Source: a virus (Duplodnaviria > Caudoviricetes). From it: a stretch of 53,544 nt of DNA. The stretch covers positions 1 through 53,544 of IMG/VR virus record IMGVR_UViG_3300017767_000015, one strand, 5' to 3'. The first letter of the stretch is position 1. Every line of letters begins with the position of its first letter. The position numbers and the translations under genes were made by a program. The notes under the pieces are model-generated. The model did not search any database. It was not told where the DNA came from and worked only from the letters and a program-made list of their open reading frames with translations. Below, one piece after another: positions 6,208 through 50,210 of this stretch.

Positions 6208-7006
6208 GTATGAAGGGGCATACATATTATCGCAACCAAAACATATTGTGGTTGAAGATTTTATTGCTCTTAGAAAGACCTCCAAAGGTAGAAGATTCAA
6301 TCCATATCTACACTTGCGTATAGACGAGTTCGATGTAGTGCTTGACGGCTACGATGCTATATGGGAGTTCTTAGATGTGATTCAGCCGAATATGTATCGC
6401 ACACAGATACAAGCAGGTATGCTTGGCAAGTTAGACTTGCCTCATACTTTCGACAAGGAAATACAGGCTCTAATAGATGAATCGCAGGTTGAATGGATTT
6501 GTTTTAATTATGACAAAAAGAAATTTGTCATTCCTAATACACGACCCAAGCGGAAGATAGAGGCACACATAGCCTCTACCGTTCACGATTGCACTATGGT
6601 AGAAGAGGGCTGGCGTTGGAAACCGGAAGGGTGCATAGCAAAAATGCTACTACCTTTTAATAACAAGGATTTGCGAACAAGATGCCCTTCTTACATATAT
6701 GGCGAACACCCACAGTTATGTATAGTCCAAGAGATAAAAGTCAAAACATGGCGAGTTTCAACAATAATACACGCAAATTGTGGTGCAGATTATAGAATCG
6801 CGCCCCAAAAGTGTTATTGGAATCCCGAAATGGATGGGTTCAAAGATATGAATAACTACATAACGAGAATGTCTTTCCACATGGCGGAGATAGCATACGA
6901 TATTAGCAACACATTATCCAACAAGGATAGGGTAGGTATGTATTCACGCGAAAGAGACCGTCTTGAGTATGATAGATATATCTTTCAAATCGGAGGAAAG
7001 AATTAA
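6194..7006 (+). CDS. Hypothetical protein (start moved to ATG 6194)
   Basis: AGGTGAGG SD before MQPFRY; no family recognised. Confidence 0.7.
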   Translation: MQPFRYEGAYILSQPKHIVVEDFIALRKTSKGRRFNPYLHLRIDEFDVVLDGYDAIWEFLDVIQPNMYRTQIQAGMLGKLDLPHTFDKEIQALIDESQVEWICFNYDKKKFVIPNTRPKRKIEAHIASTVHDCTMVEEGWRWKPEGCIAKMLLPFNNKDLRTRCPSYIYGEHPQLCIVQEIKVKTWRVSTIIHANCGADYRIAPQKCYWNPEMDGFKDMNNYITRMSFHMAEIAYDISNTLSNKDRVGMYSRERDRLEYDRYIFQIGGKN

Positions 7007-7186
7007 GAAAAAAATAAACGCAAGACTGCGAGCCTGTTGATTTTATTTTGTAATATTTCCTAAGAGATTAAACTTAAGTCCGACTATTATTTATTTAATA
7101 AATAGAGGATTAACTCTTAAGAAAGAAAAAAGAATAATTTAAAATCGCATTCAGTCATTTGATTTAATTTTTTTTAATTATTTCTA
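6996..7186. repeat. AT-rich imperfect palindromic element, copy A (candidate origin or protein-binding array)
   Basis: Arms GAAAGAATTAAGAAAAAAATAAA / TTTAATTTTTTTTAATTATTTC and TTTCCTAAGAGATTAA / TTAACTCTTAAGAAA; inner TATTTATT-T-AATAAATA; inverted homologue at 50019-50210. Confidence 0.8.
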
Positions 7187-7238
7187 TGGTCTTGAAAGTA
7201 ATGGGATTCATAAGGTCTTAGCAACATGAGGTATATAC

Positions 7239-8033
7239 ATGGGAGAGATACAGACAATAAACGAGACAGACTTTGTATGGTTTGATGGTGAGCCTAAAGG
7301 CATCACTCAAGCCATACTATACGATGCAGTAGGCACAGACCACATACCTGCGGTAGTGGGTGCATCTATGGTAAAGGAGAACGAACCGATAGGGTATATG
7401 ACGAGCAAACACATACACTCAAGCCCGCATACCTTCCTTGAAGTAGGATTCACAGGTTGGGCGATATACAGAAATGGTAATTGCCTAATCGTTGAAGTAT
7501 TAACACCCGCACACATAAGTAAGGATATAGGCCAACAGAAAAACGCATGGCTATTCAACTATCCCCCTGCGAGAGATGTAGCAAAGATGCTTGTCAATCT
7601 TGGAGTCAAAGACTTCTTTGTATTAACAAGCGATTCCTTTGATAGGATGATGGAAGAAGAAATTGATTCCTGCGTTATTGTAAAGGGTGAAGATATTGGC
7701 GGAGAAGAAGCATATAACTCCCTTCAACCTCTATGGGGTTGGCTACCTGCTTTCATGTTCAGCGTTGAAAGCGCAGGTGCAAAGATACTAATTATTCCTT
7801 CTCACGGCGCAAGAATGGAGAGCCTACCTTATGATGATAGCCACATTAGAGAGGCTTTGGGCTTACTCAAAAAGAACGGATATAATACCGTTGGTGCTAT
7901 AAAAAGGTCGAAGGGTATTTATGATAGGGCTTCCTCCGAAGCAAATGAGGCAGCGAAGATGGCGGGAGAAGTAGTGGCGAGAATGAAGACTAAAAACAAG
8001 AGAGACATAAATGCAAATGGAATGTTCGGGTGA
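7239..8033 (+). CDS. PAC2 (proteasome assembly chaperone 2)-like protein, divergent
   Basis: Length and pattern fit the family: N-terminal G.D.IP.VVG..M, IGYMTS..., central 'ARDVAKMLVNLGVKDFFVLTS', basic helical C-terminus; upstream TTCATAA box suggests a leaderless or short-leader mRNA. Confidence 0.45.
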   Translation: MGEIQTINETDFVWFDGEPKGITQAILYDAVGTDHIPAVVGASMVKENEPIGYMTSKHIHSSPHTFLEVGFTGWAIYRNGNCLIVEVLTPAHISKDIGQQKNAWLFNYPPARDVAKMLVNLGVKDFFVLTSDSFDRMMEEEIDSCVIVKGEDIGGEEAYNSLQPLWGWLPAFMFSVESAGAKILIIPSHGARMESLPYDDSHIREALGLLKKNGYNTVGAIKRSKGIYDRASSEANEAAKMAGEVVARMKTKNKRDINANGMFG

Positions 8034-9370
8034 TTAAAATGACAATGAAATATGATGAGATGGATATTTTCGATAGAGTCCTTGACTTTTGCGATAGAAA
8101 CTATATCATAGATATGGAAGATAAAGTTCCCGTATTCCTATGTAGTATTGGCGCACACTTGTTTAACACCGTCAATAAGTGTAGCATGTGTGACTTCGCA
8201 CCAAGAGAGGGTGAAGAAGGCTATCGCTTTGTAATCGCAGACTGTCCTCTAAGACATAGCGAATATCCAATATACACTCCATCATCAAGAATTGCAGATA
8301 CAAGAATACACATTATCATGCGTGGTGCTAAGGGTTCGGGAAAGAATGTATTGATTGATTTGTTCTGTGCTGAATACACAGGTCTTCTATGGAATACCGA
8401 AGGTTTCAATGGTATAGGTTTTCGCACAATGATTGGCTCAAACTCTATCACGGAGGCAGGTATGTTTGGTTCTGTGAATGACGAAGGGCAGATAATAGGT
8501 AGGCCACTCGCAAGAGAGTTATGCGGTGGCTTCCTATGTTTTGAAGAATTTTCATCGGTCTCCGATGCGAATAAGAAAGACCACAGTATAGATATGAAGA
8601 ATCAATTATTGACTTCCCTTGATAGTGGTCGTGTGAACAAAGGTATGAGAGACGGATGGGTAAAATACAATACTCGATATACGGTATGGGGAGGAACGCA
8701 ACATGGTCGTATGGATTTGGAGTCCGGTCTTGACCGAAGGTTCTTCATTATTGATATTCTAATGGATGCAGAAAAAGAGCGTCTATACAAAGAGGCACAG
8801 AACAAGCAAGCGTCTATGCCTCCCGAAGAGAGGGCATATTTAGCAAGTGAGATTATTGACATGCGAGCATGGTTCATAGACAGGCAGATGGATATTGTAA
8901 TGAATCCCCCGAAGGGAGTTAAGTTCTCGCAAGAGTTTCAAGATTGGGTAATGAAGGAATCGGTGCGTTCTTTTGAGAGTGACTTGTTCCGAAGACTTGC
9001 TATTGGTTATCACATGATGAAAGGTGAATGGGAAGGTGGAATCCTTGATGTGCAGATGGATAAAAGATTGGAGACATTGTTAGAACAATGTCTGCGAATG
9101 CGTCGTAATGTTATGGATGAAGATGTGCATTTGATTAAGACTACATTTTGGGATAAAGATGTTCCTCGTTCAACATTGATTAAAGATGTTGCTAAACTAA
9201 TCACTAACAATGATTATCAGTCTGCGAAGAGATGGATTGACGAAAATCTAAAGCAACAAATATGGTTTGGAGAGTTCACTCCTCGCAAAGAAGGAAGAGG
9301 TCGAAGGGGCGTAGTATGTAGGTTCGGTATGCCGGACTTGAAAAGCGACAATGTAAATTGGGGTGGTTAA
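8030..9370 (+). CDS. mcm: MCM-family AAA+ helicase lacking the usual N-terminal domain
   Basis: IHIIMRGAKGSGKN (Walker A), S.TEAGMFG, GGFLCFEEF (Walker B), L..LDSGRV...RDG, SGLDRRFF (Arg finger), probable C-terminal winged helix. Confidence 0.75.
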   Translation: MIKMTMKYDEMDIFDRVLDFCDRNYIIDMEDKVPVFLCSIGAHLFNTVNKCSMCDFAPREGEEGYRFVIADCPLRHSEYPIYTPSSRIADTRIHIIMRGAKGSGKNVLIDLFCAEYTGLLWNTEGFNGIGFRTMIGSNSITEAGMFGSVNDEGQIIGRPLARELCGGFLCFEEFSSVSDANKKDHSIDMKNQLLTSLDSGRVNKGMRDGWVKYNTRYTVWGGTQHGRMDLESGLDRRFFIIDILMDAEKERLYKEAQNKQASMPPEERAYLASEIIDMRAWFIDRQMDIVMNPPKGVKFSQEFQDWVMKESVRSFESDLFRRLAIGYHMMKGEWEGGILDVQMDKRLETLLEQCLRMRRNVMDEDVHLIKTTFWDKDVPRSTLIKDVAKLITNNDYQSAKRWIDENLKQQIWFGEFTPRKEGRGRRGVVCRFGMPDLKSDNVNWGG

Positions 9371-9372
9371 AC

Positions 9373-9654: not shown

Positions 9655-9904
9655 AAAGACACACTACCAAAGATGGAGAGAGAAGTGCGTTGATTATATT
9701 AAGCAACATGGTTCTTCTTATACTCGCACATTATGGTTATCGGCAGGGTGTCATAAGAGCAAGCCGGAAAATGTTATGAGTGCAACGCAGATATTGATGC
9801 GTGATGATAGATTCATAGGTGAATACGAAGAGAAAGGAAGTAAGCATGAGATTGGTAAATGGCAAGCCAAGCAGAAGATGTGGAGGTTGAGAGATGTAGA
9901 GTAA
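9644..9904 (+). CDS. Basic winged-helix-like protein, paralog 2
   Basis: WRE.C..YIK...P.....ILMRDDRF...W.LRD. Confidence 0.6.
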   Translation: MPSKKTHYQRWREKCVDYIKQHGSSYTRTLWLSAGCHKSKPENVMSATQILMRDDRFIGEYEEKGSKHEIGKWQAKQKMWRLRDVE

Positions 9905-9908
9905 ATGG

Positions 9909-25148: not shown

Positions 25149-28100
25149 TTAGTAAGGTCGGAAGTTATCACTTTCGGCAACATTAGGTTTATTCAATCTT
25201 CTTAGATTCACGGAAGTATTGTGAATGATTAGGGAATCATAAGGCGCATTGTCATTACCTTGATTAGGTTTCCTTGTTATGTCTATTTTAAGGGTGTTTC
25301 CTGCGGTGCTAAGACCCTCAATGAGGGTAGTGGGCATCAAGAGTATCTTCTCCCTGTTTTTAGAGCCTGTAAGGACTTTTGTTGTGCTAACGCTCTTGTT
25401 AGTTTCAATGCAAGTAGCAGTCATTGTTAGTTCTATATTGGTTGAGGTATCTGTTGATACTATTGACTCAAGAGAAAATAATCCCCCTGCCGAATCATTA
25501 GGAACTCGCAAAGACATGGAATAAGTATGTTGCTCATTCTGCCCCGAACCGGAGTCAAGAGGGTTTTCTATACCGGACATACAGAATCCTTCGGATGTTG
25601 CGATTGCTACTCCGGTTGTAGGTGAACTGATAACATCAACACCATCAACTGCTCTATCGAAGGAGGATTGATTACCTGTCTTCTTCATACCGAGAATGCC
25701 CCATGTTCCGCCACTTGAACCTATGTCATTGTTGAAATCGGATTTACCTTTGATTCTATTTAGTAGGCTTTGCGATATATCATTAGAAGTCATACCAGCA
25801 TAACCCATACCTTGCGAAGATGGGTCTCCACCATCCACATGACGACTCATCATTACCTTTCTTCCATCATTATCTCCCGAACCTCCGAACTTGGCGGGTG
25901 GTGGTCTTAGCGAAGGTGGTCTTGGTCTTGCGGGTTTTGCTTTTGCTTTATCTCCTCCGCCTCCGCCTCCTCCTGTTCTCTCTTTAAATGCTCTTGCGAA
26001 ATTGTATCGAGAATGGGTTGATAATTTTTCAAGACCTAATTTTACTTGTTCCACATTCCTTTCTGTTTGTTGCCAACCTATTCTCTTTATTATCATCCTC
26101 TCATTACTTATGTCAATATTAGCATCTGTATATGTTAGGCTTGTAGCAGGAATATAAGCAAAATCATCAACTATGTTTATTCTTGGTGCGTAATAAGCAG
26201 CGTGTTCCTTTGCTAAAGCACCCATCTCCGGATATTCTCTCATTCCTAATGGGAATATGGAATCAGCAGAAGTGGATAATCCTAATGACCCAAGACCTAT
26301 CTTCCCATTAGCCATTGATGATTGTCCAAAGGCTACTACATCACCGCATCTTTCTTTAATAAGCGCGCACAGATAATCATAATTAACTGAAAATATTATT
26401 TTGCGAGCATTACCATCATAACTCGATGGTATATCCATTGTGTAATATCCATTTCCGTCTATCGTAATATCCTTTCTATATGTTGAGTTTAGTGTATTTG
26501 TTACTGTATTATCCGGAGGGAAATTAGATGAAGTAGCGGTTGTATTAAAATCGCAATCCATTAAATACAATTGGAATTTTACATCTGTGCTATTCGTTCC
26601 CGAAAATAATCCAATTGCTAATCGCAACTTTTCTCCGGTAGTAGCACTTACTTTGTTAGTTCCTGCACTAACATGCACTACTTGTAGAGCATTTGACAGG
26701 CTATTTGCCCCATAGAAATAATAGGCTTCATTTTTTAGATGTTGTTCGGCAAAAGAAAAATTAATGGTATGAACTCCGGAGGAAAAAGAAGTTCCATCAT
26801 AGTATATTCTAAAATTATAGTAGTTTCCTGTGCTTCCTATTTGACATGGTAAATTATAATATCCTGCGGTAGAATAGGTGACATTAGTTCCTGTATTACC
26901 ATTATAGTCAAATCTAAATGTTGTAGAAGCAGTAGTTATTATTACTTGCCCTGCAATACCAAAAGCAGTTAGTGGAGGATTAGCAAATGTATTACTGCCA
27001 CTTGGATTAAATACGCCACCATCTGTTTTAAACAAAGATAATCCTTCCACCCCGAAAGTTTCCGGATGTGCTTCATTACCTACAACCGGATGAGCAACTT
27101 GTGAGGTTGATGTATGGGGATTGGTTTTGTCAAAGGTATGTGTGGCTTTACTTTTACCTATTTTGTGTAGTCCATTTTGTATTCCAAAGAAAGGACTAAC
27201 TCCGTTTTTATTAGACCACCAACAGGTTTCGGGTTGCGTGTGCGATATTGAGGTTGATGATGTATTCAATCTTTTTCTAAACACATCTGCGATATATCCT
27301 CTTCTACCACTAAGCATCTTGTGATTATTATTAGCATCTCTTAGCATTTCTGCTTCAATACTAATTTTTGATTCGGTTTCTCTATCAAATTCTTGTTTTG
27401 CTAATGCTTCTGCTTCTCCTCTATTCATAACTTCGGGGAATGCTAAAGTTTTCCATCTTATATCTGTATTTTCGCTTGGTGTTGGGAAATCAACAAATGA
27501 ACTATTACCATTATAATATACTCTTACATTTGTTATTTGCGAAAATCCTTCTGTTCTAAGATTTGATGTTTTTAAATTGTCACGATTTAAAGTAACGCCC
27601 AAATCATATATTTCTCTAAACTCTAATCTGTTATCTCTTCCCATTTGGAAAGTCAATCTTTTAGTATTACCAGCAATACCTACTCCTTCTTTGCTACTCA
27701 TACTATCAAGAATATCATAGATGGTTTTTGTCTTTGCATCAATAGAACATCCGAAAGTGTCCGAAGAATTATCTCTCAATATAGGAACATTGTTAATATC
27801 ACTAATTGCAGGAAGGGAAGAATTATTTAACCAAGATTCGTGAATTGCATTATTTTGAATAAATGAAATCTTCTCATCAGCAGTAAATGTTCCGCAATTA
27901 GCAGAAGTAATTTTACCTACTATGTTTAAGTTTAATCGCAGACCATATAGAGCAGCAGTAGTATTATAGACAGTGACTTTATCAAAATTAGTATCTAATT
28001 TATCATCGGATAGTAAGTCTTCGTTGCTACCAATCGCAACACTACTTCCTGTTGCACCTGCCGTTACATCTGCTTTTAATTGGTCTATTGCATGTTGAGG

Positions 28101-31100: not shown

Positions 31101-32366
31101 TTTTGTATAATGCAAATCTAAAGACCAACCATTAAGGCCACCCATAGTCGCTGCACTAAATGTTGTTCCAAAAGAACCATTATTAAAAGGAGTAGTATTA
31201 CCATCAGCATAAGCCTTCCATGTGTTACCAGCAAAATCCATTACTACTTGAACATCAACCCAATCTCCTACTTTTGTTTGATTTAGATTAGCAGGAGTGC
31301 CAAAAGAATCTTTGGTAATAGAACCTTTTGCTTTCTGCAAAGAGGCATGTGCTAAATCAATATCAACTGTAACAAGAGATGTTACAGAAGACCAAGTATT
31401 GTTTGCTTTTACATAAGGATTAGGATAACCTAATTTAAGTGTATATTTTGGAGTATGATTTGAATGTGGGTCGCACATTAATCGCAAGTTAAATGTCTCA
31501 CCTATACCTTTAAATCGCAACTTACCTGTGTAATTAATTACTCTATGAGTTCCCGAAGAAGCGGTTTGTTCGGGTTCAATAAATACATTATGAACAAAAA
31601 AGTTTTGTCCGGAAGGACTTGTTATTTCATGCGATTGCGAAAGTGAATATGATACTGTGGGAGTTTGTCTTGCGAATGCAGAATGATAATAAGCACCAGC
31701 AAATGAAGCCATTACTAATGTCTTATCGGGAGTATCATGACTTCCCGAAGTATTAGTAAGTCCTTTATGGAAAAAGGGTATTGGGTTTCCGGCACTTGGG
31801 CTTGCTTGTGAAGTAACTCCTGCGGTTATATCATACATGCTTACAGGTGCAGAACCATAAGACATATCCATAATACCCATAGGAACATAATATATTCCTG
31901 CCGTTTCATGTCCGTTCCGAAATGCAAGGTAGTTATGGTCTGTTGCTTCACCATTGTATTTCTGTCTATTTGCGATTATAGAATTAGGAACTTCTAAGTG
32001 CATTCTATTTTGATATAAATTTGATTCTGCTTCTCTTGGATTTAATGTAAGTGCTTCATGGAAACCTGCATTTGTTTTTAGGTTATCTCCTGCTAAAGAC
32101 TGAAATGAAGTTAAATATAATTCTTGTTCTGTTGAGTAAGTAGTATGAAGACTACCTAAATATTCTTGTCGTAGTCTATCTGCATAAGAGTAATAAAATC
32201 TTGGAATAAAAGATACATTACCAATAGAAGAACCATGATGGGATAAAGTATGGTCTAAATCTCTATACGATGCAGGATTTAAATCATCTGCAACTAATCT
32301 ACAAGAGTTAAAATCGTCGTAATATCCGGACAACCAATAATTATATTTTGTTCCAACTGTCTTCAT
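25149..32366 (-). CDS. Very large tail tip/hub and receptor-binding protein
   Basis: 2405 aa directly after the tape measure; tail-hub-like segments (LWWGFIE.I.H, ISASDSL, ITNVRVYY, EAEALAK, IIKRIGW) interrupted by beta-rich inserts. Confidence 0.75.
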   Translation of the reverse strand: MKTVGTKYNYWLSGYYDDFNSCRLVADDLNPASYRDLDHTLSHHGSSIGNVSFIPRFYYSYADRLRQEYLGSLHTTYSTEQELYLTSFQSLAGDNLKTNAGFHEALTLNPREAESNLYQNRMHLEVPNSIIANRQKYNGEATDHNYLAFRNGHETAGIYYVPMGIMDMSYGSAPVSMYDITAGVTSQASPSAGNPIPFFHKGLTNTSGSHDTPDKTLVMASFAGAYYHSAFARQTPTVSYSLSQSHEITSPSGQNFFVHNVFIEPEQTASSGTHRVINYTGKLRFKGIGETFNLRLMCDPHSNHTPKYTLKLGYPNPYVKANNTWSSVTSLVTVDIDLAHASLQKAKGSITKDSFGTPANLNQTKVGDWVDVQVVMDFAGNTWKAYADGNTTPFNNGSFGTTFSAATMGGLNGWSLDLHYTKGSDDYINHTTLIDRAGMAIPLTNKFNGDLNSLPPVNKMTMNLGANSTSTCSIDILDDNSAFTLTPLTSTAEDWRLLVFQENEDRPLWWGFIENITHKQSVYDNSMTTTISASDSLSVFNRLLPIWEVGQGAFQSLNNHLSMSASTAKKYDETFALHQKMDFGSVDLQMLDSNIGFGVFNTRGRLLNYNNVANSKMSLYSGTAIQMYINEDEDGANSVEKEWAGLNAANWGMFDIYSMYREANKLFVIIERDTRFTIDTSGTTHYRALAVGDRVSLKGTLTNDADNLIISAITYKQHQGGTDNRYVAFELAVTGTQASDNLQITFNIVNHIQSYNMNMFGNELLEFIVNTPSPHNLSIGDEFVGFSGADHPFAGEVFTVIGVPSAGTVYAETTKKTGLANFTASAATEELHVYRQRDINSHNDKRRVITPAVIHQTPSGATTDTANAEMVRVGLDPVIHSRIHARWMRDLPLSTWFKAQFGIIDAEPYTRAGVGSITEHPFTSTQATANGWATSTGRTSAKLTADIAAGAISITIKDPAIWYHATMNKLDEFILDLIDNSTGEHDFAIGSLLSIQNEVPIDWEGDGTWDFGSAHGLAEGDIIAICGFKSNSALNGVHMVKEISTSTGSSLSANHIKTWKINKYVPTRNSFAFLQAKYQQGSGWNDGTARHNQDPDAVNWSLEATDVNTNCGWDGSFPSAETGGKAAHGIVTIGGVKGVKREWKINDTILGLRKVDESNGYKHIFLSWADMRNDGNADADGGHRKTTYGLNLPTTQNYELLLTFADQFDNEGQPDVFTDLKIGADADIWDIDSTVEPYSGGAWSALDGASNDEPYDTRYHNWQNKGGAIALVDVSRFWNLNTMACGGRPGYSAGGLVDFGDYNVATFGFPYLIDSYWKEATASYKNSGSPIQKHKNSLNFINDGTKLKSNLVVGDTTLALKDITEFDTSGYGVIMCEKGSNNTAEKTAYYYAWTGKGTATINGTVVDTLTGVYLTSYSVVTHPQHAIDQLKADVTAGATGSSVAIGSNEDLLSDDKLDTNFDKVTVYNTTAALYGLRLNLNIVGKITSANCGTFTADEKISFIQNNAIHESWLNNSSLPAISDINNVPILRDNSSDTFGCSIDAKTKTIYDILDSMSSKEGVGIAGNTKRLTFQMGRDNRLEFREIYDLGVTLNRDNLKTSNLRTEGFSQITNVRVYYNGNSSFVDFPTPSENTDIRWKTLAFPEVMNRGEAEALAKQEFDRETESKISIEAEMLRDANNNHKMLSGRRGYIADVFRKRLNTSSTSISHTQPETCWWSNKNGVSPFFGIQNGLHKIGKSKATHTFDKTNPHTSTSQVAHPVVGNEAHPETFGVEGLSLFKTDGGVFNPSGSNTFANPPLTAFGIAGQVIITTASTTFRFDYNGNTGTNVTYSTAGYYNLPCQIGSTGNYYNFRIYYDGTSFSSGVHTINFSFAEQHLKNEAYYFYGANSLSNALQVVHVSAGTNKVSATTGEKLRLAIGLFSGTNSTDVKFQLYLMDCDFNTTATSSNFPPDNTVTNTLNSTYRKDITIDGNGYYTMDIPSSYDGNARKIIFSVNYDYLCALIKERCGDVVAFGQSSMANGKIGLGSLGLSTSADSIFPLGMREYPEMGALAKEHAAYYAPRINIVDDFAYIPATSLTYTDANIDISNERMIIKRIGWQQTERNVEQVKLGLEKLSTHSRYNFARAFKERTGGGGGGGDKAKAKPARPRPPSLRPPPAKFGGSGDNDGRKVMMSRHVDGGDPSSQGMGYAGMTSNDISQSLLNRIKGKSDFNNDIGSSGGTWGILGMKKTGNQSSFDRAVDGVDVISSPTTGVAIATSEGFCMSGIENPLDSGSGQNEQHTYSMSLRVPNDSAGGLFSLESIVSTDTSTNIELTMTATCIETNKSVSTTKVLTGSKNREKILLMPTTLIEGLSTAGNTLKIDITRKPNQGNDNAPYDSLIIHNTSVNLRRLNKPNVAESDNFRPY

Positions 32367-32391
32367 TAATTCACTATCCTAATACTATTCT

Positions 32392-35300
32392 CTAACTTAT
32401 CAAATTTTGGTCTCTTAACTCTTGCATTACTCCTTGCGAAACGGCATCAACCATTTCGGGAAGAGTCATTCCATTAAATACATTATGTTGCACAAGTTCA
32501 ACTTTATGTAGCAGACTTTCTACGCCACCTTGAACTACTTGCTTGTAAATTTGACCTGTAAAGTTTGCTCTTTCACCAAAGAATAATTCTTCTCTTGCAT
32601 TAGCAAATTCATTTTGTTGCTCTAAAATACTATCATATAAGTATCTTTCATTTGCGATTAGTGCATCTACCCCATCTTCTTGAACGCTAAGTAAATTACT
32701 ATAATAATCTTGCATAAATGTTATATTAATATCATCATAAGAATCATTCCCTTCAAAATCTGCAATAAACTGTTCTGCTGCGGCCTTTCCGTCTGCACCT
32801 TTACCAAATTGTTCAGAAAAATATTCTCCATTTTTCCTACCGACTACTCCATATTGTCTGTTTTCAATAACCCCTGCTCTAACTAAAGGTGCATCATCAC
32901 TAAATATACCTGTAAAACCATCTGCTTTAGGTCTATATATGTTTGCGTAAGCCTCATCCATTTCTTGTGCGCCTTGATTTACTAAGTATTGAGCATCGTC
33001 AATAGCAAGTAATTTTTCTTCTATAACCCCAAGCCTACTAACCTGTTGTTCTAATCCTCTTACTAACTCTATATCTCCTGCGGTTGTTGCCGTTTCTATA
33101 TCTTTATTGATTAAACCTATTCTTTCTTGTAGGCTTGCTAATGTAGAATCTGTAAGTTCAGCATCTTGCTTTAAATCATCATAAGAAAGACTACCAAATA
33201 ATCCTTCATTTATAGCGGTAGCACCAGCAGCACCTTGTAAGTCTGCAAGAATCTGTGAAGTTCTATCTAATTCACTATTCATAGTTTCTAAATTATCAAT
33301 ATCTGTCTCAAAGTTTTCTCCAAATATACTGTCGAATAACTCAAAACCTGCATAGGCAGCAACACCACCAAGTAACATAGCAAAAGAAGCAAGACCACCA
33401 CTCATCATTCCCGACATTATAACGCCTTCTCTTGCAGTAGCCTTGATTGCAGTTTGAAGAGTTTTAAATGACTTTACTAACATTGGGATTGTAGTTAAAG
33501 CCATACCATACATTATGGCAGACATTTGTTTGTTTTCATCAACAACACTTGGAAGAATTAGCATTGATGTTAGCAAAGCACCATTAAGCATACCTTGAGC
33601 AAACTCTTTACTTTTTATGGCTTCGCCTACTTTTTTGAAACTCATGGCTTCTTGAGCATTTCCTTGAATGCTTCTTTTTTGTCTCAAGATTGCTTGGTCG
33701 TCTGCTACAATAAGCGCAGCGACTCTTATTTCTTCTTCAACTAATTGATTTATATGTTCTTCATTTGTTACTATTTTATCTCTTATAGTAGCAGTCTCCT
33801 TTTTATTAGAGATAGCAACCGCTTCTGCTTGATTAAGTTGCATGTCTATTTGACGCGCTGATTCTATACTTGTTTTTAGTTCTGCTTGTTTTGTCATTAG
33901 ACCTTCCTTTACGATAGGGTCTAATGCCCTTGCTAAAACTATTTCCGAAGACCTTAAATCATTTAAATGTTTTATTGTTCCTGTTATACTTCGTTGTTGC
34001 TTTACGCTTTGTTGTAATTGTTCAATTGACCTTGCCCCTATTTCATTAGCCAATTGTCTATCTTTATTTAGATTTGCAGTTAATTTACTTTTAAATGCGG
34101 TTTCTGCATTTAACTGCTTAGTTAAATTCATATTTGCAGTTATTTGATAATTTATACTTCTTTTTCCCTCACCTAACTTTTTTTCAAGAGAAGTTAATTT
34201 TGAGGTTATTGCAGCAGTTTGTTTTTTACCTTTTGCACCTGCTAACTCTATTCTTGTTGCTTCAATTTCAACCTGTAATGCTACTCTTTTTTGTTCTAAT
34301 GCTGATTTTTCTACTTGTGCCTTCTTTCTTGCTGCTACCGCAGTCATTTGATAAGAATGTTGGACTTTATTTAGACCCGTTAAAGTAACTTGAGTGGATG
34401 CTAATGTCTCGCTTTTATTCATTTTTAATACGGCATTTTGTAAAATTGCGGCCTCTCTCATGGCTTGATAAGATTTTACACTCTCTTTTACATCTGCAAT
34501 ATTTTTAGGCTGAATAGCATGTAATGTCTTAAAAGCAATAACCATACCCATTATGTTTAGACCTAAATCCATAGTAGGTTGTAGAATCTTTTGATACGCA
34601 TTACCAAGACCTATAACACTACCTACAAATGGCAAAAACACTTCTTGTCCACGAACCTGTGCGCCTATAATGTCTTCTAATCTATCTAAGAAAAATGATT
34701 CAGCCCTTGCTGCTGACATAAATGCAGGTGCTAATTTTTCACCTAACTCTACTCTTTGGTTTTCTAACTTAGCATTCATAGAGTCTATCTTAAATGCAGC
34801 AGACTTCTGTTTATTTTCAAACTCTTCAATAGCAGGGAATTGCGATTCAAATGCAATAGTCTGCAATTCTGTAAGCCTTTGTTGATTTTCCATTAACTTT
34901 AGGAATTTAATATAATGTCTTGAACCTGCAATATTTACCGCTAATGCTCTTTTCTGCTCGCTATTCATATTTGCATAAGCAGGTGCGATTGCAGTTAGAA
35001 CATCTGTTAGTTTCATTTGTGCTACGCCTTGAGAATCAACACCATCAACTAATTCTGCGATTGCTTGTGTTGCGTTATTACTTGCGTTTCCGAGACGCTG
35101 GTAAATCATACGCAGACCTGTTCCTGCCCTGCTTACTTCTTCACCTGTCTCAAGTAGCAAAGCAGACATAGCAGCCATTTCACCAATGCTTTCACCTGCG
35201 ATATCCGCTTGACTTGCGAATTGGTTAAGAAAGAAAGTAATATCTTCCATTGTAGCAACAGAAGAGTTTTCAATTGTATTCAATTGATTGAGAGTATGTA

Positions 35301-35868
35301 TAGAAGATTCTCTTACTACATTTGCTTGTTTTGCTGCATCGAGAGCATCGTATTGAGCCTTAGTCATTCCACCATATAGGAATTGTGTCTGTTGCGCCAA
35401 TTGGATAAAACGATTCATTCCTTCTTCGGTTTCCATCTCACCAATCTGTGCCATTAACAGACCTGCTCTTGCTGCTTCAATAACTGCTTCTTGTTGTCCT
35501 AAGACACCCTTTAATTGAGCCGTTCTTGCTGATGCGGCAAGTGCTTCTGCACCTGTAAAGGCAAAGCCTTCACCCATTTTTACTGCGGCTTCTGCAAATC
35601 TATTTACTTCATCAACCGATTCGCTATTGTAAAATTTACGAACTCTAACAAACTGTTGCTCAAACTCAAAGAAGGCATCAGTCATTGATGCTACACCCAT
35701 TAGGATTTGATTAGTAGTCTCCATAAAGGAGTCATTAATACCTCCTAATGTATCAATAAGAATAGCCTTTTGAATTGTTGCTGCCGTTTGAGTATCACCT
35801 AAGATTCTATCGGCTGAAAATCTACCGATTACATCGAAATATACTCTTGCTGCACCCGACTTAGCCAT
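32392..35868 (-). CDS. Tail tape measure protein
   Basis: 1158 aa, Ala/Gln-rich helical; AGESIGEMAAMSALL.E.G....AGTGLRMIYQRL core; follows the chaperone pair. Confidence 0.9.
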   Translation of the reverse strand: MAKSGAARVYFDVIGRFSADRILGDTQTAATIQKAILIDTLGGINDSFMETTNQILMGVASMTDAFFEFEQQFVRVRKFYNSESVDEVNRFAEAAVKMGEGFAFTGAEALAASARTAQLKGVLGQQEAVIEAARAGLLMAQIGEMETEEGMNRFIQLAQQTQFLYGGMTKAQYDALDAAKQANVVRESSIHTLNQLNTIENSSVATMEDITFFLNQFASQADIAGESIGEMAAMSALLLETGEEVSRAGTGLRMIYQRLGNASNNATQAIAELVDGVDSQGVAQMKLTDVLTAIAPAYANMNSEQKRALAVNIAGSRHYIKFLKLMENQQRLTELQTIAFESQFPAIEEFENKQKSAAFKIDSMNAKLENQRVELGEKLAPAFMSAARAESFFLDRLEDIIGAQVRGQEVFLPFVGSVIGLGNAYQKILQPTMDLGLNIMGMVIAFKTLHAIQPKNIADVKESVKSYQAMREAAILQNAVLKMNKSETLASTQVTLTGLNKVQHSYQMTAVAARKKAQVEKSALEQKRVALQVEIEATRIELAGAKGKKQTAAITSKLTSLEKKLGEGKRSINYQITANMNLTKQLNAETAFKSKLTANLNKDRQLANEIGARSIEQLQQSVKQQRSITGTIKHLNDLRSSEIVLARALDPIVKEGLMTKQAELKTSIESARQIDMQLNQAEAVAISNKKETATIRDKIVTNEEHINQLVEEEIRVAALIVADDQAILRQKRSIQGNAQEAMSFKKVGEAIKSKEFAQGMLNGALLTSMLILPSVVDENKQMSAIMYGMALTTIPMLVKSFKTLQTAIKATAREGVIMSGMMSGGLASFAMLLGGVAAYAGFELFDSIFGENFETDIDNLETMNSELDRTSQILADLQGAAGATAINEGLFGSLSYDDLKQDAELTDSTLASLQERIGLINKDIETATTAGDIELVRGLEQQVSRLGVIEEKLLAIDDAQYLVNQGAQEMDEAYANIYRPKADGFTGIFSDDAPLVRAGVIENRQYGVVGRKNGEYFSEQFGKGADGKAAAEQFIADFEGNDSYDDINITFMQDYYSNLLSVQEDGVDALIANERYLYDSILEQQNEFANAREELFFGERANFTGQIYKQVVQGGVESLLHKVELVQHNVFNGMTLPEMVDAVSQGVMQELRDQNLIS

Positions 35869-36163
35869 TTTTCAACCAACCATTTAACTTATTTGCTACT
35901 TCCGCTTGGTCTCTTATTGATGTACTTCTCTTTTGATTTCTTCGGGCAACTGCTTTCTTCGCTTGGCGACTTCCTGCTTGACCCTTTGCTTCATCATATT
36001 GCTCGCTTATTCTTTCAGCCATTTCCGATGCAATAATCATGTCAAATTCTAACTTCATCAATCCTCCTTTGCAGTTATATTTGTCAAATAAATCGCTTGG
36101 TAATACTCCCTTAAATGCTGAACATAAACTTGGTGCGACTTGGGAGATTAATCCAAAGGGCAA
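35861..36163 (-). CDS. Tail assembly chaperone, frameshift extension (lambda gpT-like)
   Basis: Overlaps the end of 36148..36504 in the -1 frame at C CCT TTG. Confidence 0.75.
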   Translation of the reverse strand: MPFGLISQVAPSLCSAFKGVLPSDLFDKYNCKGGLMKLEFDMIIASEMAERISEQYDEAKGQAGSRQAKKAVARRNQKRSTSIRDQAEVANKLNGWLKNG

Positions 36164-36504
36164 GCACCCTCTATGTCGTCTCCTCTAACGAAATTTAATA
36201 TTGTTCTTAGTTCCTCGCTTGTTAAAACATTAATGTCAATTTCTTTATCAATGACACATTTTGGAATCCAATTGGAGATTTGGCTATCTATACCTGCGCC
36301 TTCGCTATCAAGCATATCTGCAAACTCTTGTTGTTGTTCTTCCGACCAATCAGTAGGGTTTGTACCAAAGTGTCTGCACTTTCGCAGAACTCCGGCTTGT
36401 ATTTTTTCAATCGCAAGTTTATCCATTCCGGATGCTTGTCTAACCCAAATTTTCTTTCCGTTATCTAATTCAATTTCTTTCTTCAATACTGGCATTCTTT
36501 TCAC
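36148..36504 (-). CDS. Tail assembly chaperone (lambda gpG-like)
   Basis: Lies between tail tube and tape measure; ends at a slippery heptamer. Confidence 0.8.
   Translation of the reverse strand: MKRMPVLKKEIELDNGKKIWVRQASGMDKLAIEKIQAGVLRKCRHFGTNPTDWSEEQQQEFADMLDSEGAGIDSQISNWIPKCVIDKEIDINVLTSEELRTILNFVRGDDIEGACPLD
36154..36160 (-). other. -1 ribosomal frameshift slippery site C CCU UUG
   Basis: Minus strand tgC CCT TTG gat TAA; the -1 frame continues CCC TTT GGA TTA ATC (PFGLI...). Confidence 0.8.
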
Positions 36505-36585
36505 TTTCCTTTTCTATTACTATACGAGTCATTGACTCGTTCCAAAGAGATACTACACTACTGTTGTATCTCATGGAATCTCATC

Positions 36586-36777
36586 TCATTGGTCTTCATA
36601 AGTAATAATTCCTATAAAATTATTACCAACGCTCTTTCTATTTATGCTAATATCAACAATCTTATCTCCTGCTGCTAATGCTCTTAGCGCAGTTTGTATA
36701 AGTGTATGAATTGTGGCTTGCGTTCCAACAACTACCGTAGTAGTTAGTTTCGCAGGGTCGGTGATGGTATGGCTCAT
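36586..36777 (-). CDS. Small putative virion protein
   Basis: 63 aa, in the tail operon after the tube gene. Confidence 0.65.
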   Translation of the reverse strand: MSHTITDPAKLTTTVVVGTQATIHTLIQTALRALAAGDKIVDISINRKSVGNNFIGIITYEDQ

Positions 36778-36790
36778 CTAAGAACCCCCA

Positions 36791-37831
36791 TCAAAGTGCA
36801 TCATAGTCTGCTACGGTAGTATCGCTTGTTTTACAACGAATCTGCATCATGCTATTTGCATCTGCCAAATCATAAAGAGCATGGAAGTTCACAGTCATAG
36901 TCTGTGAATCTCTACCACTTACGCTTGTTTCCGGCATTTCATAAATTACTTTAGGAAACTCAAATTGTATGTAATTATCAGCATCAACATAAAATAATGC
37001 TGAAAGTGCGGGCGCAGCAATAGAACCATTTTTCAAAGCATTAGCACCGGACATTAAATCATTAATGTTAGGTTCATTCTTTGCTACATCACTTGATATT
37101 GATGCTACAAGACTCTTATGGAAAGTAATGCTTCCTGTTATTTCTCTTGTAGTAACAGGTGGTTTGCGAATGCAAGTATCACTACTTAGAGAATAAGTAT
37201 TATCCAAATCCCTGTTTGTTCTAATCTCAAAGTCAATACTTTGAACATGAGGAGAGAAATCGCTTGTATTTACTCCTGCTTCAAAATTAACATAAGCCTT
37301 TGAGAAGTGTGCTGCATCTCCTGTATAAGCAGGAAGAGTAGTATGCAAAGCCCCGTTATCATCATTTTGTTTTGCGCCTGTAAAATTAACTGTAAGCATA
37401 GCATACTCTCCAATACTTGAAGATACGCTAATAGAATCAATTACTTGACCGGAGAAAACATGCTCGGATTCATCTCTTCCACACATTACTGTATAGGAAG
37501 GGAGGGTATCTGTTGCACCTACCCCTATTTCAGTAAATACTCTTGCATCATCAGCAGCAGAACCACTATCAACGCCTGTTATTCCGTGAAGACACATAAG
37601 AGTAAAAGCATCGGGTTGTAGTGCCATTGTTACTGCGCCACTTGACATTAGTTTGCTTGTTACTGCTTTTGCACTACCATAGTAGTTCATATCACTTCTT
37701 TTTAGTATATCGTATGTCTGTTGCATTGTTTCGCTTTCAACTTCGCCTACTGCATCTGCCGTTAATTCGGGAGAATTGTAGGTTGCTTCTTTTGCGATTG
37801 AGACATATCTTGTATGGTGTCCTACTGCCAT
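36791..37831 (-). CDS. Major tail tube protein
   Basis: YVSIAKEATY, LPSYT, FSGQVIDSISVS, REITGSITF, FPKV.Y; TATAAATA box about 25 nt upstream. Confidence 0.85.
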   Translation of the reverse strand: MAVGHHTRYVSIAKEATYNSPELTADAVGEVESETMQQTYDILKRSDMNYYGSAKAVTSKLMSSGAVTMALQPDAFTLMCLHGITGVDSGSAADDARVFTEIGVGATDTLPSYTVMCGRDESEHVFSGQVIDSISVSSSIGEYAMLTVNFTGAKQNDDNGALHTTLPAYTGDAAHFSKAYVNFEAGVNTSDFSPHVQSIDFEIRTNRDLDNTYSLSSDTCIRKPPVTTREITGSITFHKSLVASISSDVAKNEPNINDLMSGANALKNGSIAAPALSALFYVDADNYIQFEFPKVIYEMPETSVSGRDSQTMTVNFHALYDLADANSMMQIRCKTSDTTVADYDAL

Positions 37832-39686: not shown

Positions 39687-40211
39687 TCAAGCCTTACCCA
39701 AATGAGCAAGTCTTTGTAGTTCTGCATACCCACGCATACGAAGATTCTTTCCTCGTATATCGTCGGTAGTTTGATGTGTTGATTCGTCTTCAAGATAAAG
39801 ACCGCTTGCTATATCAGCACATAACTCTCTTAGAGCATGAGCCATTTGTCCTTCTTGGACTATAACTCCTACTGCATGGTCAAATGAAATTCCTGTGCAA
39901 CCTGTAAGATTTATTGATGTTTTGCCTGTCCACGAAAAGGAATCTCCATCAATATTTCCCGAACCCGATGTTGAAAAGGGAACTGCCGTTGGTAGTACAA
40001 TAGTGGTTGAGTTAGCAGAAATGGGGTCATGCGTAACGATATTTATTAATCCTTTATGTGGTTCATCTCTACCATAGTCAAGAAAGCATTGGTCTATTTT
40101 TACACCTGCCCTTCTAATACAACTATTGATTCTACTTTCTGCCCTGCTACGCTGCGCGCTATCAAGACCAAGTCTTTGACCCACATCGGCAGCAGAACAA
40201 TATGATACCAT
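39687..40211 (-). CDS. Head-tail adaptor protein with an inserted beta domain
   Basis: YCSAADV...L...I..A...ID..F and LRELCADIA helical adaptor pattern. Confidence 0.7.
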   Translation of the reverse strand: MVSYCSAADVGQRLGLDSAQRSRAESRINSCIRRAGVKIDQCFLDYGRDEPHKGLINIVTHDPISANSTTIVLPTAVPFSTSGSGNIDGDSFSWTGKTSINLTGCTGISFDHAVGVIVQEGQMAHALRELCADIASGLYLEDESTHQTTDDIRGKNLRMRGYAELQRLAHLGKA

Positions 40212-47750: not shown

Positions 47751-47756
47751 ATAGCA

Positions 47757-48191
47757 TCACTTTTTCTTTACAATGGGTCTTAATTCTGCTGCCATGTCAA
47801 GTTTAATCTTTTCAATTTCTTGTTCATGTAGTTGAGCAGAAGTTTTCATTTCATTCTCATGTTGTTGAGATGCTTTTTCTAAAGCAATTGTATGGTCATC
47901 CATAGCAGTTCTAAGTTCTCTTTGATGCTTTAGTTCAGTTGGAATATTATCAACCTCTTGAGTCTGTTCGGATTCCCACATACGGAGAACCGTTGAAAGA
48001 GCAGGGGCAGCGACACCACCGATAATGGCGATAAGTGCTATGAAACCATCTAAGTTTTCAAGAACTACATCGGGTTTCCATATACCCATACCTACTACTG
48101 CACCACAAGCAAGCAACCAAAGATAGATTGCTGGTTTAACTGTGCTTGATACCATTCTGTCATTAAAACTATTATTATTATTTTTTTTCAC
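47757..48191 (-). CDS. Two-TM plus coiled-coil membrane protein (holin-like candidate)
   Basis: AIYLWLLACGAVVGMGIW and FIALIAIIGGVAA; GTG start after GGTGA SD. Confidence 0.55.
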   Translation of the reverse strand: MKKNNNNSFNDRMVSSTVKPAIYLWLLACGAVVGMGIWKPDVVLENLDGFIALIAIIGGVAAPALSTVLRMWESEQTQEVDNIPTELKHQRELRTAMDDHTIALEKASQQHENEMKTSAQLHEQEIEKIKLDMAAELRPIVKKK

Positions 48192-48436
48192 ATCATCACC
48201 TGCCCGCCAAGAACTGCCGTAATTATTATTGAACCTACACCCATTAACCACTTAACGATAGATTTCCCTATATCGCTAATCATATCTTGAGTGCCTTTTT
48301 GAGTTTCCGCTAATACAGTAAATTGTTCATCTGTTCTAACTTGCGATTCAACAAGACTTGCTAACATTTCATCATGCTTGTCAAGTCTTCGTTCAATGCT
48401 ATCAAGCCTATGATTTTGCACCGCATCATTCGTCAT
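48188..48436 (-). CDS. Coiled-coil plus C-terminal TM protein (XhlA-like lysis candidate)
   Basis: RLDSIERRLDKHD heptads, then WLMGVGSIIITAVLG. Confidence 0.6.
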   Translation of the reverse strand: MTNDAVQNHRLDSIERRLDKHDEMLASLVESQVRTDEQFTVLAETQKGTQDMISDIGKSIVKWLMGVGSIIITAVLGGQVMM

Positions 48437-49817
48437 TTAAATCACTTGCCCCATCTTGAGAGTTCTCTCTTGGAAGTTCCCCTGTGTTTGCTTTACCACC
48501 TTGTTTTCTTACATCTCCTCCCTCTTCTTCGGGCTGACCTAATATCTCAAGTGCTTGATTAAGGGTCAGTATGCCGTTTGAATAACCGATATTTGCCCTT
48601 TGCATCTTATTGAGTCTTGTTTCTTCATCAATAGGCTCAAAAACTAACTTTGGTAGGTCTTTCATTTCATGTTGTATTTTTAGAAGTTCAAGGTGTTTTG
48701 AAAATACCTTCTTGACTGCTTGATTAAGAATACTTTGCATTCTTCGTATAGCCTGTGAAGACCATGTGCTTGCAGTATAGGTTGCAGCGAAGGTTGAGCC
48801 TCTTTCTTGACCTGCTGCTACTCTTGGAACTTGAAGGACTGCGGCTATGTCTGCATTGACATTATCAAGGAATGAGGTTGTGTCCGGTATAGCGGTTCTT
48901 TGGTCTATGTGTTGTATTGTCACATAGTCGGGGAATATCGGTGTTTGGTCTCCTCTTAGAGACTCAAGAGTATCAACGACTTGATTCATAATGAATGATA
49001 GTCTTTCTTGTTGCTCATTCGGGTCTTGTATGTGGTCTATTGCTGATTTGTCAATAGTAATGTATTGCTTTGTCATAGCATCCTCAAGAGCGATACGATT
49101 GTTCATACTGTTATATTTTGCTCGTATAGCCTGTTTTAGTGAAGTGAATCGTGATGCGCCCCATATACCGTATGTCATTTTAGTATCGCCATCTTCAAAC
49201 CAATTACTGCGATAGTCAGTCTTTATGTGTAGTATCTCTTTTACAGGAAACTCTTGCTCGGTCTGTTCTCCTTTACGCAAGATGTATCTTTCTGCTACTA
49301 TAATTGGATTATCTTCGTCGGCAGTTTCGTTATTTCCTCTTGAGTCCATAATGAATATCTGTTTTACAGGTAGGCTTTGTAGGTCTGTAAGACCCTTTCT
49401 TGATGTGCCTACATACTTATTTACATCATTTCCATAGACCATTAGGTTTCTCATGGAGTTAATTAGAAAATCATCAAAGTCAAGAGTCTCTTCTGTGAGT
49501 ATTCGTATTGCTTCTCTTATTTTCTTATTCTTTGCTGCCCTGTAATCAATCTTGTAGTTGTTAGCAGTTAGGCTAACGGCTCGTACTGCGCCGTTAAGTT
49601 CGGGGTCAAGTTTAAGCATCTCGTCGAATAACTCAAAATCATTATCAAAGTTAGTGTTATCTCTTAGTTTATTTGTTTCTTCAACAATATCCTGCATACC
49701 CGCAGTAAGCGCAAAAGGGCTTTGATGTTTGACAGGGTATGAATAAACAAGAGGCTTACTTGCTACTACCCCTTTTTTAGATTTTCCCCCGATTTGTCCT
49801 ATAAATGGAATCCTCAT
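48426..49817 (-). CDS. Portal protein (start moved to ATG 49817)
   Basis: DPEL.GAV, L.VYGN, EILHIK, G.WGAS, IAAVLQVP, GILTLNQA.E.LG; TTTAAG box about 30 nt upstream of MRIPF. Confidence 0.9.
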   Translation of the reverse strand: MRIPFIGQIGGKSKKGVVASKPLVYSYPVKHQSPFALTAGMQDIVEETNKLRDNTNFDNDFELFDEMLKLDPELNGAVRAVSLTANNYKIDYRAAKNKKIREAIRILTEETLDFDDFLINSMRNLMVYGNDVNKYVGTSRKGLTDLQSLPVKQIFIMDSRGNNETADEDNPIIVAERYILRKGEQTEQEFPVKEILHIKTDYRSNWFEDGDTKMTYGIWGASRFTSLKQAIRAKYNSMNNRIALEDAMTKQYITIDKSAIDHIQDPNEQQERLSFIMNQVVDTLESLRGDQTPIFPDYVTIQHIDQRTAIPDTTSFLDNVNADIAAVLQVPRVAAGQERGSTFAATYTASTWSSQAIRRMQSILNQAVKKVFSKHLELLKIQHEMKDLPKLVFEPIDEETRLNKMQRANIGYSNGILTLNQALEILGQPEEEGGDVRKQGGKANTGELPRENSQDGASDLNDE

Positions 49818-49920
49818 AACGGATGTTAGGATGTCTTTCTTTCTTAAATGTATGGTTGTGTTAGGTCTGTATTGGAAAGCATATATTAATGACTCATAAT
49901 TATTACTATGTATGCACCAC

Positions 49921-50070
49921 ATGGAGATTTTAGATTTGGGCGCACCTACTATTATTGCTCTTGCTATATTAGAAATCACCTTTTGGTGTGTTGTGGGTTA
50001 TCTATTCTTTCGGAGGCTTAGAAAAAATAAAAAAAGAAATAAACACTCTACTGAAAACAAATGGGTCTAA
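49921..50070 (+). CDS. 49-aa single-pass membrane peptide (not in ORF track)
   Basis: MEILDLGAPTIIALAILEITFWCVVGYLFFRRLRKNKKRNKHSTENKWV*; TATA-like sequence upstream. Confidence 0.55.
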   Translation: MEILDLGAPTIIALAILEITFWCVVGYLFFRRLRKNKKRNKHSTENKWV

Positions 50071-50210
50071 TTCTTTTTTCTTTCTTAAGAGTTAATATTT
50101 TATTATTATAATAATATAGGTTGGCATCTTTGACTACAACCTTTAAGAAATAATAAAGAATAAACAAAACAGGCTCTTAGTACAACGATTATTTTTTTCT
50201 TAATTCTTTC
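50019..50210. repeat. AT-rich imperfect palindromic element, copy B
   Basis: 50070-50096 is the exact reverse complement of 7109-7135 (27 nt); 50189-50210 of 6996-7017 (22 nt); inner perfect palindrome TATTATTATAATAATA at 50101-50116. Confidence 0.8.

Follow-up and report, generated by a model that had tools for sequence, protein, structure and literature searches.

What does a tailed virus use two inverted copies of one AT-rich palindromic element for, when they lie 43 kb apart and each stands at the boundary of a gene module? The question is raised by the IMG/VR record IMGVR_UViG_3300017767_000015 (Duplodnaviria; Caudoviricetes), a single contig of 53,544 bases that was analysed whole and is called the window here. 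A preliminary description, made from the letters of this DNA, had placed copy A of the element just before an operon for a PAC2-like and an MCM-like protein, and copy B between a portal unit and a phosphoesterase-terminase unit that diverge from each other. Based on our analysis, the element is very probably a selected protein-binding cis-element of some kind. More tentatively, the copies are most likely replication origins in which origin recognition boxes flank a DNA unwinding element (the ORB-DUE-ORB type), which is the best fit to their anatomy.

Results

The only long inverted repeat of the window

Alignment bears out the preliminary description in its coordinates, block lengths and spacer lengths. 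Copies A and B are reverse complements that share exact blocks of 22 nt (6996-7017 and 50189-50210), 9 nt and 27 nt (7109-7135 and 50070-50096), with spacers of 12/12 and 70/71 nt.

6996 to 7186, plus strand: copy A, whole core (nhmmer 154.5 bits forward, 67.3 reverse)
50019 to 50210, minus strand: copy B, whole core (nhmmer 170.4 bits forward, 66.6 reverse)

Over 191 aligned core columns the two copies are 67% identical, the longest exact runs being 27, 22 and 9. Shuffling the match vector 100,000 times gave a run of at least 27 in 51 cases, and such a run together with one of at least 22 in none. The 27-nt and 22-nt blocks occur twice each in the window, even at three mismatches, and none of 100 shuffles gave two matches. 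A repeat search returned the pair as two arms, I1 (7091-7186/50019-50114, 96 nt, 71%) and I2 (6996-7063/50143-50210, 68 nt, 79%). The next longest inverted pair spans 34 nt, leaving A and B as the sole long inverted repeat. Non-coding DNA rich in repeats was not found anywhere else in the window, where the remaining repeats are six trivial tandem arrays and inverted pairs of at most 34 nt. The two most AT-rich 100-nt stretches of the genome also fall in the copies (0.82 and 0.81, followed by 0.79).

Each copy is an imperfect palindrome, as had been proposed, with 76% of arm cells pairing across the centre compared with 49-60% when the partners are slid by 1-3 columns. Both copies are oriented alike relative to the operon that follows them, A toward 7239 and B toward the portal gene. 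The possibility of an assembly artefact is ruled out, as contigs from three of three independent runs span copy B with an identical arrangement and both copies are present in relatives.

Fixed positions in related viruses

Thirteen near-complete genomes were compared, ten of them newly fetched. For the preliminary description, absence or a single copy in close relatives would have counted against the element; instead, 12 of the 13 have both positions occupied, one ahead of the PAC2-like/MCM-like operon, the other where the portal and phosphoesterase-terminase units diverge. The window and the genomes G001 and G004 hold exactly two. In de novo self-comparison, the best distant inverted pair lies exactly at both positions in 10 of the 13 genomes, which reveals the element in four clades invisible to a profile of the window's own clade, while profile scans add G009 (both copies) and the B copy of G015. 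The orientation of A and B to the downstream operon is constant in all alignable relatives (130-170 bits forward, 49-72 reverse). The distance from the element's centre to the portal-side start is variable, at 132-332 nt in the 8 of 12 genomes measured.

The same association extends to shorter sequences. Nine of 12 portal loci have the element upstream, and the three misses have at most 360 nt upstream of the match. Among 80 loci with MCM-like homologues, 51 have it one gene upstream of the MCM-like gene; among loci with at least 68% identity the link is present in 29 of 31, the two misses having 580 and 96 nt upstream of the match. The helicase family itself numbers 325 matches at E <= 0.001, and the copy-B region was present in 20 of the 22 runs listed, from 13 studies that possibly belong to one campaign.

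Two genomes depart from the common pattern. G015 carries a third copy, C (locus L274), in a 1.25-kb ORF-poor gap (36123-37374; ORF, open reading frame) where purine bias flips from minus to plus, and this copy heads a pair of divergent units, with a 4-kb gene block whose orientation is opposite to that in the other genomes. Copy C fits the orientation rule on the plus strand but also matches copy A reversed (66 and 63 versus 71 and 37). The gap holds G+C-rich repeats of the form GGCCAA.CCCCAAGCCC as well. G018 has a single copy, on the MCM side only, as a palindrome of about 270 bp (39923-40190, L286/L287) whose score against its own reverse complement is 84, with shuffles at 15.3 +/- 2.9. Its boxes differ (GGAATTAAGTTGGTA ... 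TACCAACTTAATTC), while the CACTG...CAGTG motif is shared and the AT-rich centre consists of ATACT/ATACTAT repeats. In G018 the large terminase (TerL) and portal genes lie on one strand and are co-directional.

Conserved boxes and co-evolving copies

The preliminary description had noted conserved blocks in drifting spacers, and this pattern held for both paralogues and distant orthologues, the boxes being 70-86% identical and the spacers 34-59%. As the boxes are conserved and the spacers are not, it is the box sequence that selection keeps, a signature of protein binding. Within a genome, local alignment of A with B scores 44-79 in 12 of 12 genomes, shuffles giving 12.1 +/- 2.0 and at most 21. 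Orthologous copies from distant clades mostly score 11-30, and the highest clade-to-clade pairs reach 36-42. The layout stays constant as the boxes change in sequence, one example being the shift from TTTC-TTAAG/CTTAA-GAAA to TTTC-ATAG/CTAT-GAAA. Recent gene conversion does not explain the match between A and B, because the spacers within a genome are near random. Given copies that are alike within a genome and orthologues that have decayed across clades, the two copies seem to share a common, lineage-specific reader or binding factor.

Anatomy of the element

The anatomy was read from an alignment of 12 copies (four of A type and eight of B type). The element is a nested imperfect palindrome of four related A/T-rich boxes of 22-27 bp in the order -> <- centre -> <-. 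From one end to the other it comprises L1 (GAAAGAATTAAGAAAAAAATAAAC), a spacer with ACTG, L2 (T-rich, ending TTTC-TTAAGAG), the centre, R2, a spacer with CAGT, R1 and a box-like tail. R2 is the complement of L2 and R1 that of L1, and the centre combines a short G+C knot with an A/T-only run of about 20-25 bp.

6996 to 7019, plus strand: outer box L1 of copy A (GAAAGAATTAAGAAAAAAATAAAC; outer-box matrix 36.0 bits), with the stop codon of ORF 6137-7006 inside it
7041 to 7069, plus strand: inner box L2 of copy A, T-rich, reverse complement of the R2 type (inner-box matrix 29.1 bits, minus strand at 7045)
7070 to 7108, no strand: centre of copy A, G+C knot then A/T-only run, a candidate unwinding region (inspection and alignment)
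7109 to 7135, plus strand: inner box R2 of copy A, the 27-nt block identical in copy B (37.8 bits)
7150 to 7155: TTCAGT ahead of box R1 of copy A
7161 to 7185, plus strand: outer box R1 of copy A, T-rich, reverse complement of the L1 type (outer-box matrix 25.4 bits, minus strand at 7161)
7194 to 7202: box-like tail GAAAGTAAT after copy A
50187 to 50210, minus strand: outer box L1 of copy B (34.6 bits)
50135 to 50161, minus strand: inner box L2 of copy B (28.6 bits)
50097 to 50134, no strand: centre of copy B, G+C knot and A/T-only palindromic run (alignment)
50070 to 50096, minus strand: inner box R2 of copy B (37.8 bits)
50021 to 50044, minus strand: outer box R1 of copy B (33.9 bits)

Box matrices applied to the window, G001 and G004 placed the top four outer and the top four inner matches all within A or B (21.5-38.3 bits); outside the copies no site exceeded 20.1 bits. 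In the window a lone weak site resembling the outer box lies at 1515-1538 (20.0 bits), in the 1321-1694 gap, and has an orthologue in G001 at 26852 (16.7 bits).

TATA-like boxes, recognised by eye, stand 10-25 nt outside the repeated core and probably mark promoters.

7207 to 7215, plus strand: TATA-like TTCATAAGG, a putative promoter 24 nt before the ATG at 7239 (inspection; motif and spacing match those before 19207)
49998 to 50013, minus strand: conserved tail GAAAGAATAGATAA of copy B, TATA-like, a putative promoter about 20 nt before the portal start (inspection; TATA-like core AATAGATAA at 49998-50006)
50232 to 50240, plus strand: TATA-like TTTATATGG, a putative promoter of the phosphoesterase-terminase unit (inspection)

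Given the position of the last of these, the real start of that unit is probably the in-frame ATG at 50262. A duplicated core promoter was considered as the identity of the element and set aside, as the repeated core does not include the TATA-like boxes, all three of which resemble the one before 19207. Sigma-70-type promoters of the bacterial kind are, around copy A, as frequent as expected (4 found, 4.0 expected). Elsewhere in the window CCCCTATT occurs 7 times compared with 1.22 expected, a count that none of 100 shuffles reached, at 591, 2916, 3934 (minus strand), 16124, 34035, 37522 and 51637. Three of these sites stand 25-35 nt ahead of plus-strand starts (624, 2941 and 51671) and may be part of a second promoter type.

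Base pairing is not what selection maintains. Covariation was 0.100 in a nested model versus 0.106 in shuffles (362 of 500 reach the observed value) and 0.092 in a two-hairpin model versus 0.084 (106 of 500), and RNAalifold returned 0 pairs on the alignment. Folding of the DNA gave z-scores of -2.47 for A and -1.28 for B, with a full hairpin in copy A only. No Rfam family and no tRNA was found at the element.

Layout of the genome

The window represents a tailed virus with an archaeal-type replication module. Its plus-strand genes run from 50244 to the window end and on from the window start to 25047, and this arm encodes an RFC-like AAA+ protein, an N6/N4 methylase, a family B polymerase (PolB), a PD-(D/E)XK nuclease and an ERCC4-HhH nuclease. 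The minus-strand genes run from 49979 to 25149 and include those for the portal, tail tube, tape measure and a 2405-aa protein.

48426 to 49979, minus strand: portal gene (Pfam Phage_portal, PHROG 12), the first gene of the structural unit leading away from copy B
50244 to 53188, plus strand: Mre11-like phosphoesterase (50244-51497) and large terminase (51671-53188), the unit leading away from the other side of copy B

The relative G001 (61.6 kb, rated 97% complete) is about 89% identical to the window, collinear and circularly permuted. As the two ends of G001 abut inside the window, the map of the window is circular, and the same comparison shows about 8.2 kb to be missing between the window's two ends. 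The missing stretch corresponds to G001 28053-36314 and encodes a 498-aa AAA protein, a DUF7192 protein, and proteins of 507 and 331 aa without a family match. A contig of another run extends 1.4 kb beyond the window end. End overlaps of 60-716 nt are present in seven of the ten newly fetched genomes, six by self-comparison (G009, G010, G013, G014, G015 and G018) and one by its IMG/VR class (G012), and the map is circular or permuted across the group.

On the circular map, all transcription leads away from copy B, and copy A lies inside the plus arm, 16-23 kb from copy B (11 genomes). GC and purine skew flip at copy B, where gene orientation flips too. In G015 the skew flips at copy C, tracking the inverted 4-kb gene block, and the skew therefore reports the coding strand and not replication.

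Some features of the window bear on none of these points. The 2405-aa ORF at the end of the tail module (25149-32366) has no Pfam match, and G+C falls to 0.33-0.36 across 26-35 kb compared with about 0.40 elsewhere in the window. Protein names of homologues gave no informative host or virus-group name. Close homologues of the PolB (cluster P0335) take an NCBI name from a 'Legionellales bacterium' metagenome-assembled genome, probably through a viral contig that was binned into a bacterial genome.

Genes beside copy A

The preliminary description had called the two genes after copy A PAC2-like and MCM-like, and Foldseek searches with predicted structures support both labels at the level of the modelled fold.

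7239 to 8033, plus strand: protein of 264 aa with a predicted PAC2-family (PbaA/PbaB-like) fold, first gene after copy A (model pLDDT, the predicted local distance difference test, 83.3)
8030 to 9370, plus strand: short MCM-like AAA+ protein of 446 aa with an N-terminal Cys/His cluster, second gene (model pLDDT 82.3)

The 264-aa model matched the archaeal PbaA/PbaB structures 5y9n_A, 3wz2_A and 3vr0_C (E 2e-6 to 4e-6; template modelling (TM) score 0.46-0.54). For the 446-aa protein, a model built from 31 diverse homologues matched MCM subunits almost exclusively, archaeal homohexameric MCMs among them (E 2e-9 to 1e-7, TMq 0.38-0.48). Sequence searches of Pfam, PHROGs, NCBIfam and PDB recognise neither protein; a Pfam MCM domain was not found in the 446-aa protein, and its profile gave weak PDB matches to ClpX (4.6e-4) and MCM9 (7e-3). 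This protein is without a full N-terminal domain and has the invariant residues C51, C54, C72 and H76.

Inteins, one or two per protein and with LAGLIDADG homing endonuclease domains, are present in six of the 12 MCM-like relatives scanned, those of 700-1149 aa (P0168, P0202, P0219, P0255, P0259 and P0264). Across 26 aligned homologues the PAC2/PbaA-like protein retains G-x-M-F-x at its C terminus, an end that presumably recalls the HbYX tail, the docking device of proteasome activators. The viral PbaA-like protein could target the host proteasome or serve as a ring chaperone for the MCM-like protein.

The absence of a recognisable Orc1/Cdc6 also stood up, with no family match in the 57 proteins of the window, the 10 proteins of the missing 8 kb, or NCBIfam. 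The 498-aa AAA protein of the missing stretch has weak AAA_5/AAA_22 matches only and no PDB sequence match.

Discussion

The case for replication origins

Twin origins, one of the readings offered in the preliminary description, are put first because the four-box layout, the AT-richness, the MCM-like neighbour, the restriction of the boxes to the copies and their lineage specificity all match origins. In the copies an AT-rich stretch is flanked by boxes of opposite polarity, the layout of the ORB-DUE-ORB type. An internal origin is needed in a genome that combines a circular map with its own helicase, clamp loader and polymerase, and no rival candidate region turned up in the window. More than one would not be unusual, as section 6 of PMC6742236 gives one to four origins per replicon as normal for archaea, and HSV-1 (herpes simplex virus 1) is described in part of PMC12543377 as having three redundant origins, two of them in inverted repeats.

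Under this scenario a lineage-specific initiator, viral or host, would bind the boxes, and its binding would bend and destabilise the A/T centre. The short MCM-like helicase, encoded with the PAC2-like protein beside copy A, would then be loaded in both directions. Since all genes diverge from copy B, forks from B would be co-directional with transcription over the whole circular map.

Several observations weigh against origins. No orc1/cdc6 gene adjoins the element, the neighbours being PAC2-like and MCM-like, and no other known initiator was found in the window or the missing 8 kb. The skew does not change at copy A, and as evidence of an origin it had to be discarded at copy B and at copy C of G015, where it is confounded by gene orientation. 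The box order is not the commonest arrangement of origin recognition boxes, the A/T-only run is short, and the likeness to such boxes is one of layout. A selected hairpin or cruciform was likewise rejected on the covariation and RNAalifold results. Finally, every copy, including the third of G015, heads a transcription unit, for which transcription control is at least as simple an explanation.

Alternative readings

That last point is the core of the main alternative, one that the preliminary description did not weigh and that is possible but less likely than origins: a shared transcription-control array. On its four boxes, upstream of the core promoters, a lineage-specific regulator (an activator, repressor or architectural protein) would switch the three major units in concert, with replication controlled from A and both the structural and the terminase/early unit from B; G015 would have five such units. 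Parallels are the early-late switch region of phi29 with p4 and p6, and the OL/OR operators of lambda. All copies stand at unit heads, A before the PAC2-like/MCM-like operon and B between divergent units; the third copy of G015 lies exactly at the flip of purine bias; TATA-like boxes abut the core on every gene-bearing side; the orientation toward the downstream operon is constant; and co-evolution within a genome is the pattern of operator-regulator pairs. According to the abstracts of PMC1904284 and PMC3100819, phi29 p4 also works through A-tract-rich inverted sites between divergent early and late promoters. Yet the 22-27 bp boxes are not individually palindromic, the array is as long as about 190 bp with the putative core promoters outside it, and the centre-to-start distance on the portal side varies. 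Other probable promoters of the genome have no box, G018 retains only the MCM-side copy though other unit heads must exist, and a single array on the replication, structural and packaging units gives no temporal order.

A boundary element is improbable. Here runs of T on either strand (T8 in R1, T7 in the L1 complement, T6 in the R2 complement) would work in both directions as archaeal terminators or insulators between units. Archaeal transcription is terminated by oligo-T tracts, runs of T5 or longer occur on both strands of every copy, and at copy A the ORF 6137-7006 stops within L1 with the plus-strand T-runs coming next. However, no gene reads into copy B or into copy C of G015, where both neighbours diverge, and T-runs would suffice for termination, leaving the conserved boxes, their lineage-specific co-evolution and the fixed four-box layout unexplained. 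Recognition sites (pac) for the terminase of a headful-packaging virus are very improbable. The circularly permuted map suits headful packaging, copy B stands 1.4 kb ahead of the large terminase gene, and A-tract-rich repeated boxes occur in some pac sites; but no small terminase was identified, the copy that G018 retains is far from the terminase, and we know of no precedent for a second pac copy in opposite orientation beside a replication operon. The least credible reading, and one now largely refuted, is a recombination substrate, either the ends of an invertible 43-kb (or 18-kb) segment, as the preliminary description had suggested, or a MITE-like insertion (miniature inverted-repeat transposable element). 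Two inverted copies with exact 22- and 27-nt blocks would suit the first, and a size of about 200 bp, AT-richness and inverted ends the second. Against inversion, the MCM-like, PolB, portal and TerL genes keep their relative strands in 12 of 13 genomes, the exception being G018, which has no second copy and has TerL on the portal strand, and contigs of three of three runs show only the reference junctions, with rare isomers beyond contig resolution. Apparent loose ends at 50070 and 50210 and an apparent joint at copy B arise where copy A's own flanks or contig match the exact blocks. Neither a recombinase nor a transposase domain was found in the proteins of the window or of the missing 8 kb. 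Against a mobile or host element, the copies sit at fixed syntenic sites, two per genome, and no target-site duplication is visible at A or B. A search with a degenerate L1 pattern gave at least 120 scattered single matches in unrelated taxa; 80 of these prokaryotic loci were fetched, and none extends beyond that one box (at most 12.2 bits compared with 130-170 for true copies); L004 (G003) too matched a single box by chance. A recent insertion would also show the opposite pattern to the one observed, in which spacers have drifted to random while boxes were kept.

Origins thus remain our preferred, if tentative, reading, and the origin and transcription-control roles may coincide. As putative core promoters abut every copy, the array is probably also an upstream control region of these promoters; polyomavirus control regions are a parallel for such a combined role. 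A bolder version is unlikely as a whole. In it, viral initiation would be self-contained, without Orc1/Cdc6, and the PAC2-like ring chaperone and the short MCM-like helicase would assemble on the four-box palindrome, whose sequence would drift with its reader. The copies would be kept matched since one reader must fire all of them, possibly joining them. If so, abundant marine archaeal viruses would have an origin-specificity code of their own.

Being short, alignable, lineage-specific and fixed in place, the element gives binding and replication assays of the viral proteins, the MCM-like and PAC2-like ones included, a defined DNA target. It is also a marker by which these viruses could be sorted into specificity groups, and a test case for co-evolution of a cis-site and its reader in uncultured archaeal viruses. 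These viruses recur across many marine metagenomes. If the transcription-control alternative were true, the element would be the master switch of the whole viral transcription programme.

Comparison with known systems

The gene set resembles that reported, in part of PMC10160649, for viruses of Marine Group II archaea, which makes the group candidate magroviruses by gene content. Searches of the literature on magroviruses and archaeal tailed viruses found no origin or comparable element described: the passages of PMC10160649 that were covered mention no repeats, palindromes or origins, and PMC5069720 has nothing on Marine Group II promoters.

Mobile elements of the MITE kind are alike in being about 200 bp long, AT-rich, non-coding and intergenic with inverted ends. 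They differ in that the copies here are two and syntenic over deep divergence, absent from the 80 fetched prokaryotic loci and free of a visible target duplication, and have their boxes kept. Lambda carries two oppositely oriented operator arrays, which co-evolve with its repressor. The phi29 p4/p6 region has several regulator sites, with A-tracts and inverted half-sites in bent AT-rich DNA between divergent promoters, as the abstracts of PMC1904284 and PMC3100819 describe. The sites of phi29 and lambda are shorter and overlap promoters, and phi29 has one region, whereas here boxes of 22-27 bp form an array between putative core promoters, with one copy always accompanying the MCM-like operon.

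The OriL and OriS origins of HSV lie between divergently transcribed genes. Based on part of PMC12543377, they are alike in being three redundant origins, two as inverted copies, and OriS in having inversely oriented boxes with an AT-rich spacer between them whose destabilisation begins unwinding. HSV infects animals and uses an unrelated SF2 helicase to bind its origins, its OriS copies lie inside kilobase-long inverted repeats whereas here the 190-bp element alone is repeated, and its hairpin form (OriS*) matters whereas no pairing is selected in this element. Archaeal chromosomal origins, as section 6 of PMC6742236 presents them, also have sequence-specific boxes of opposite polarity flanking an AT-rich stretch, number 1-4 per replicon, have diverse, initiator-specific box sequences and lie beside a replication-initiation gene, here the MCM-like one. 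The differences are that no Orc1/Cdc6 was found here, that the order is -> <- centre -> <-, and that the boxes are A-tract-rich, the likeness being by layout. Elements of this kind are known; what is new is that co-evolving inverted copies, two or sometimes three, occupy fixed positions in abundant uncultured marine viruses.

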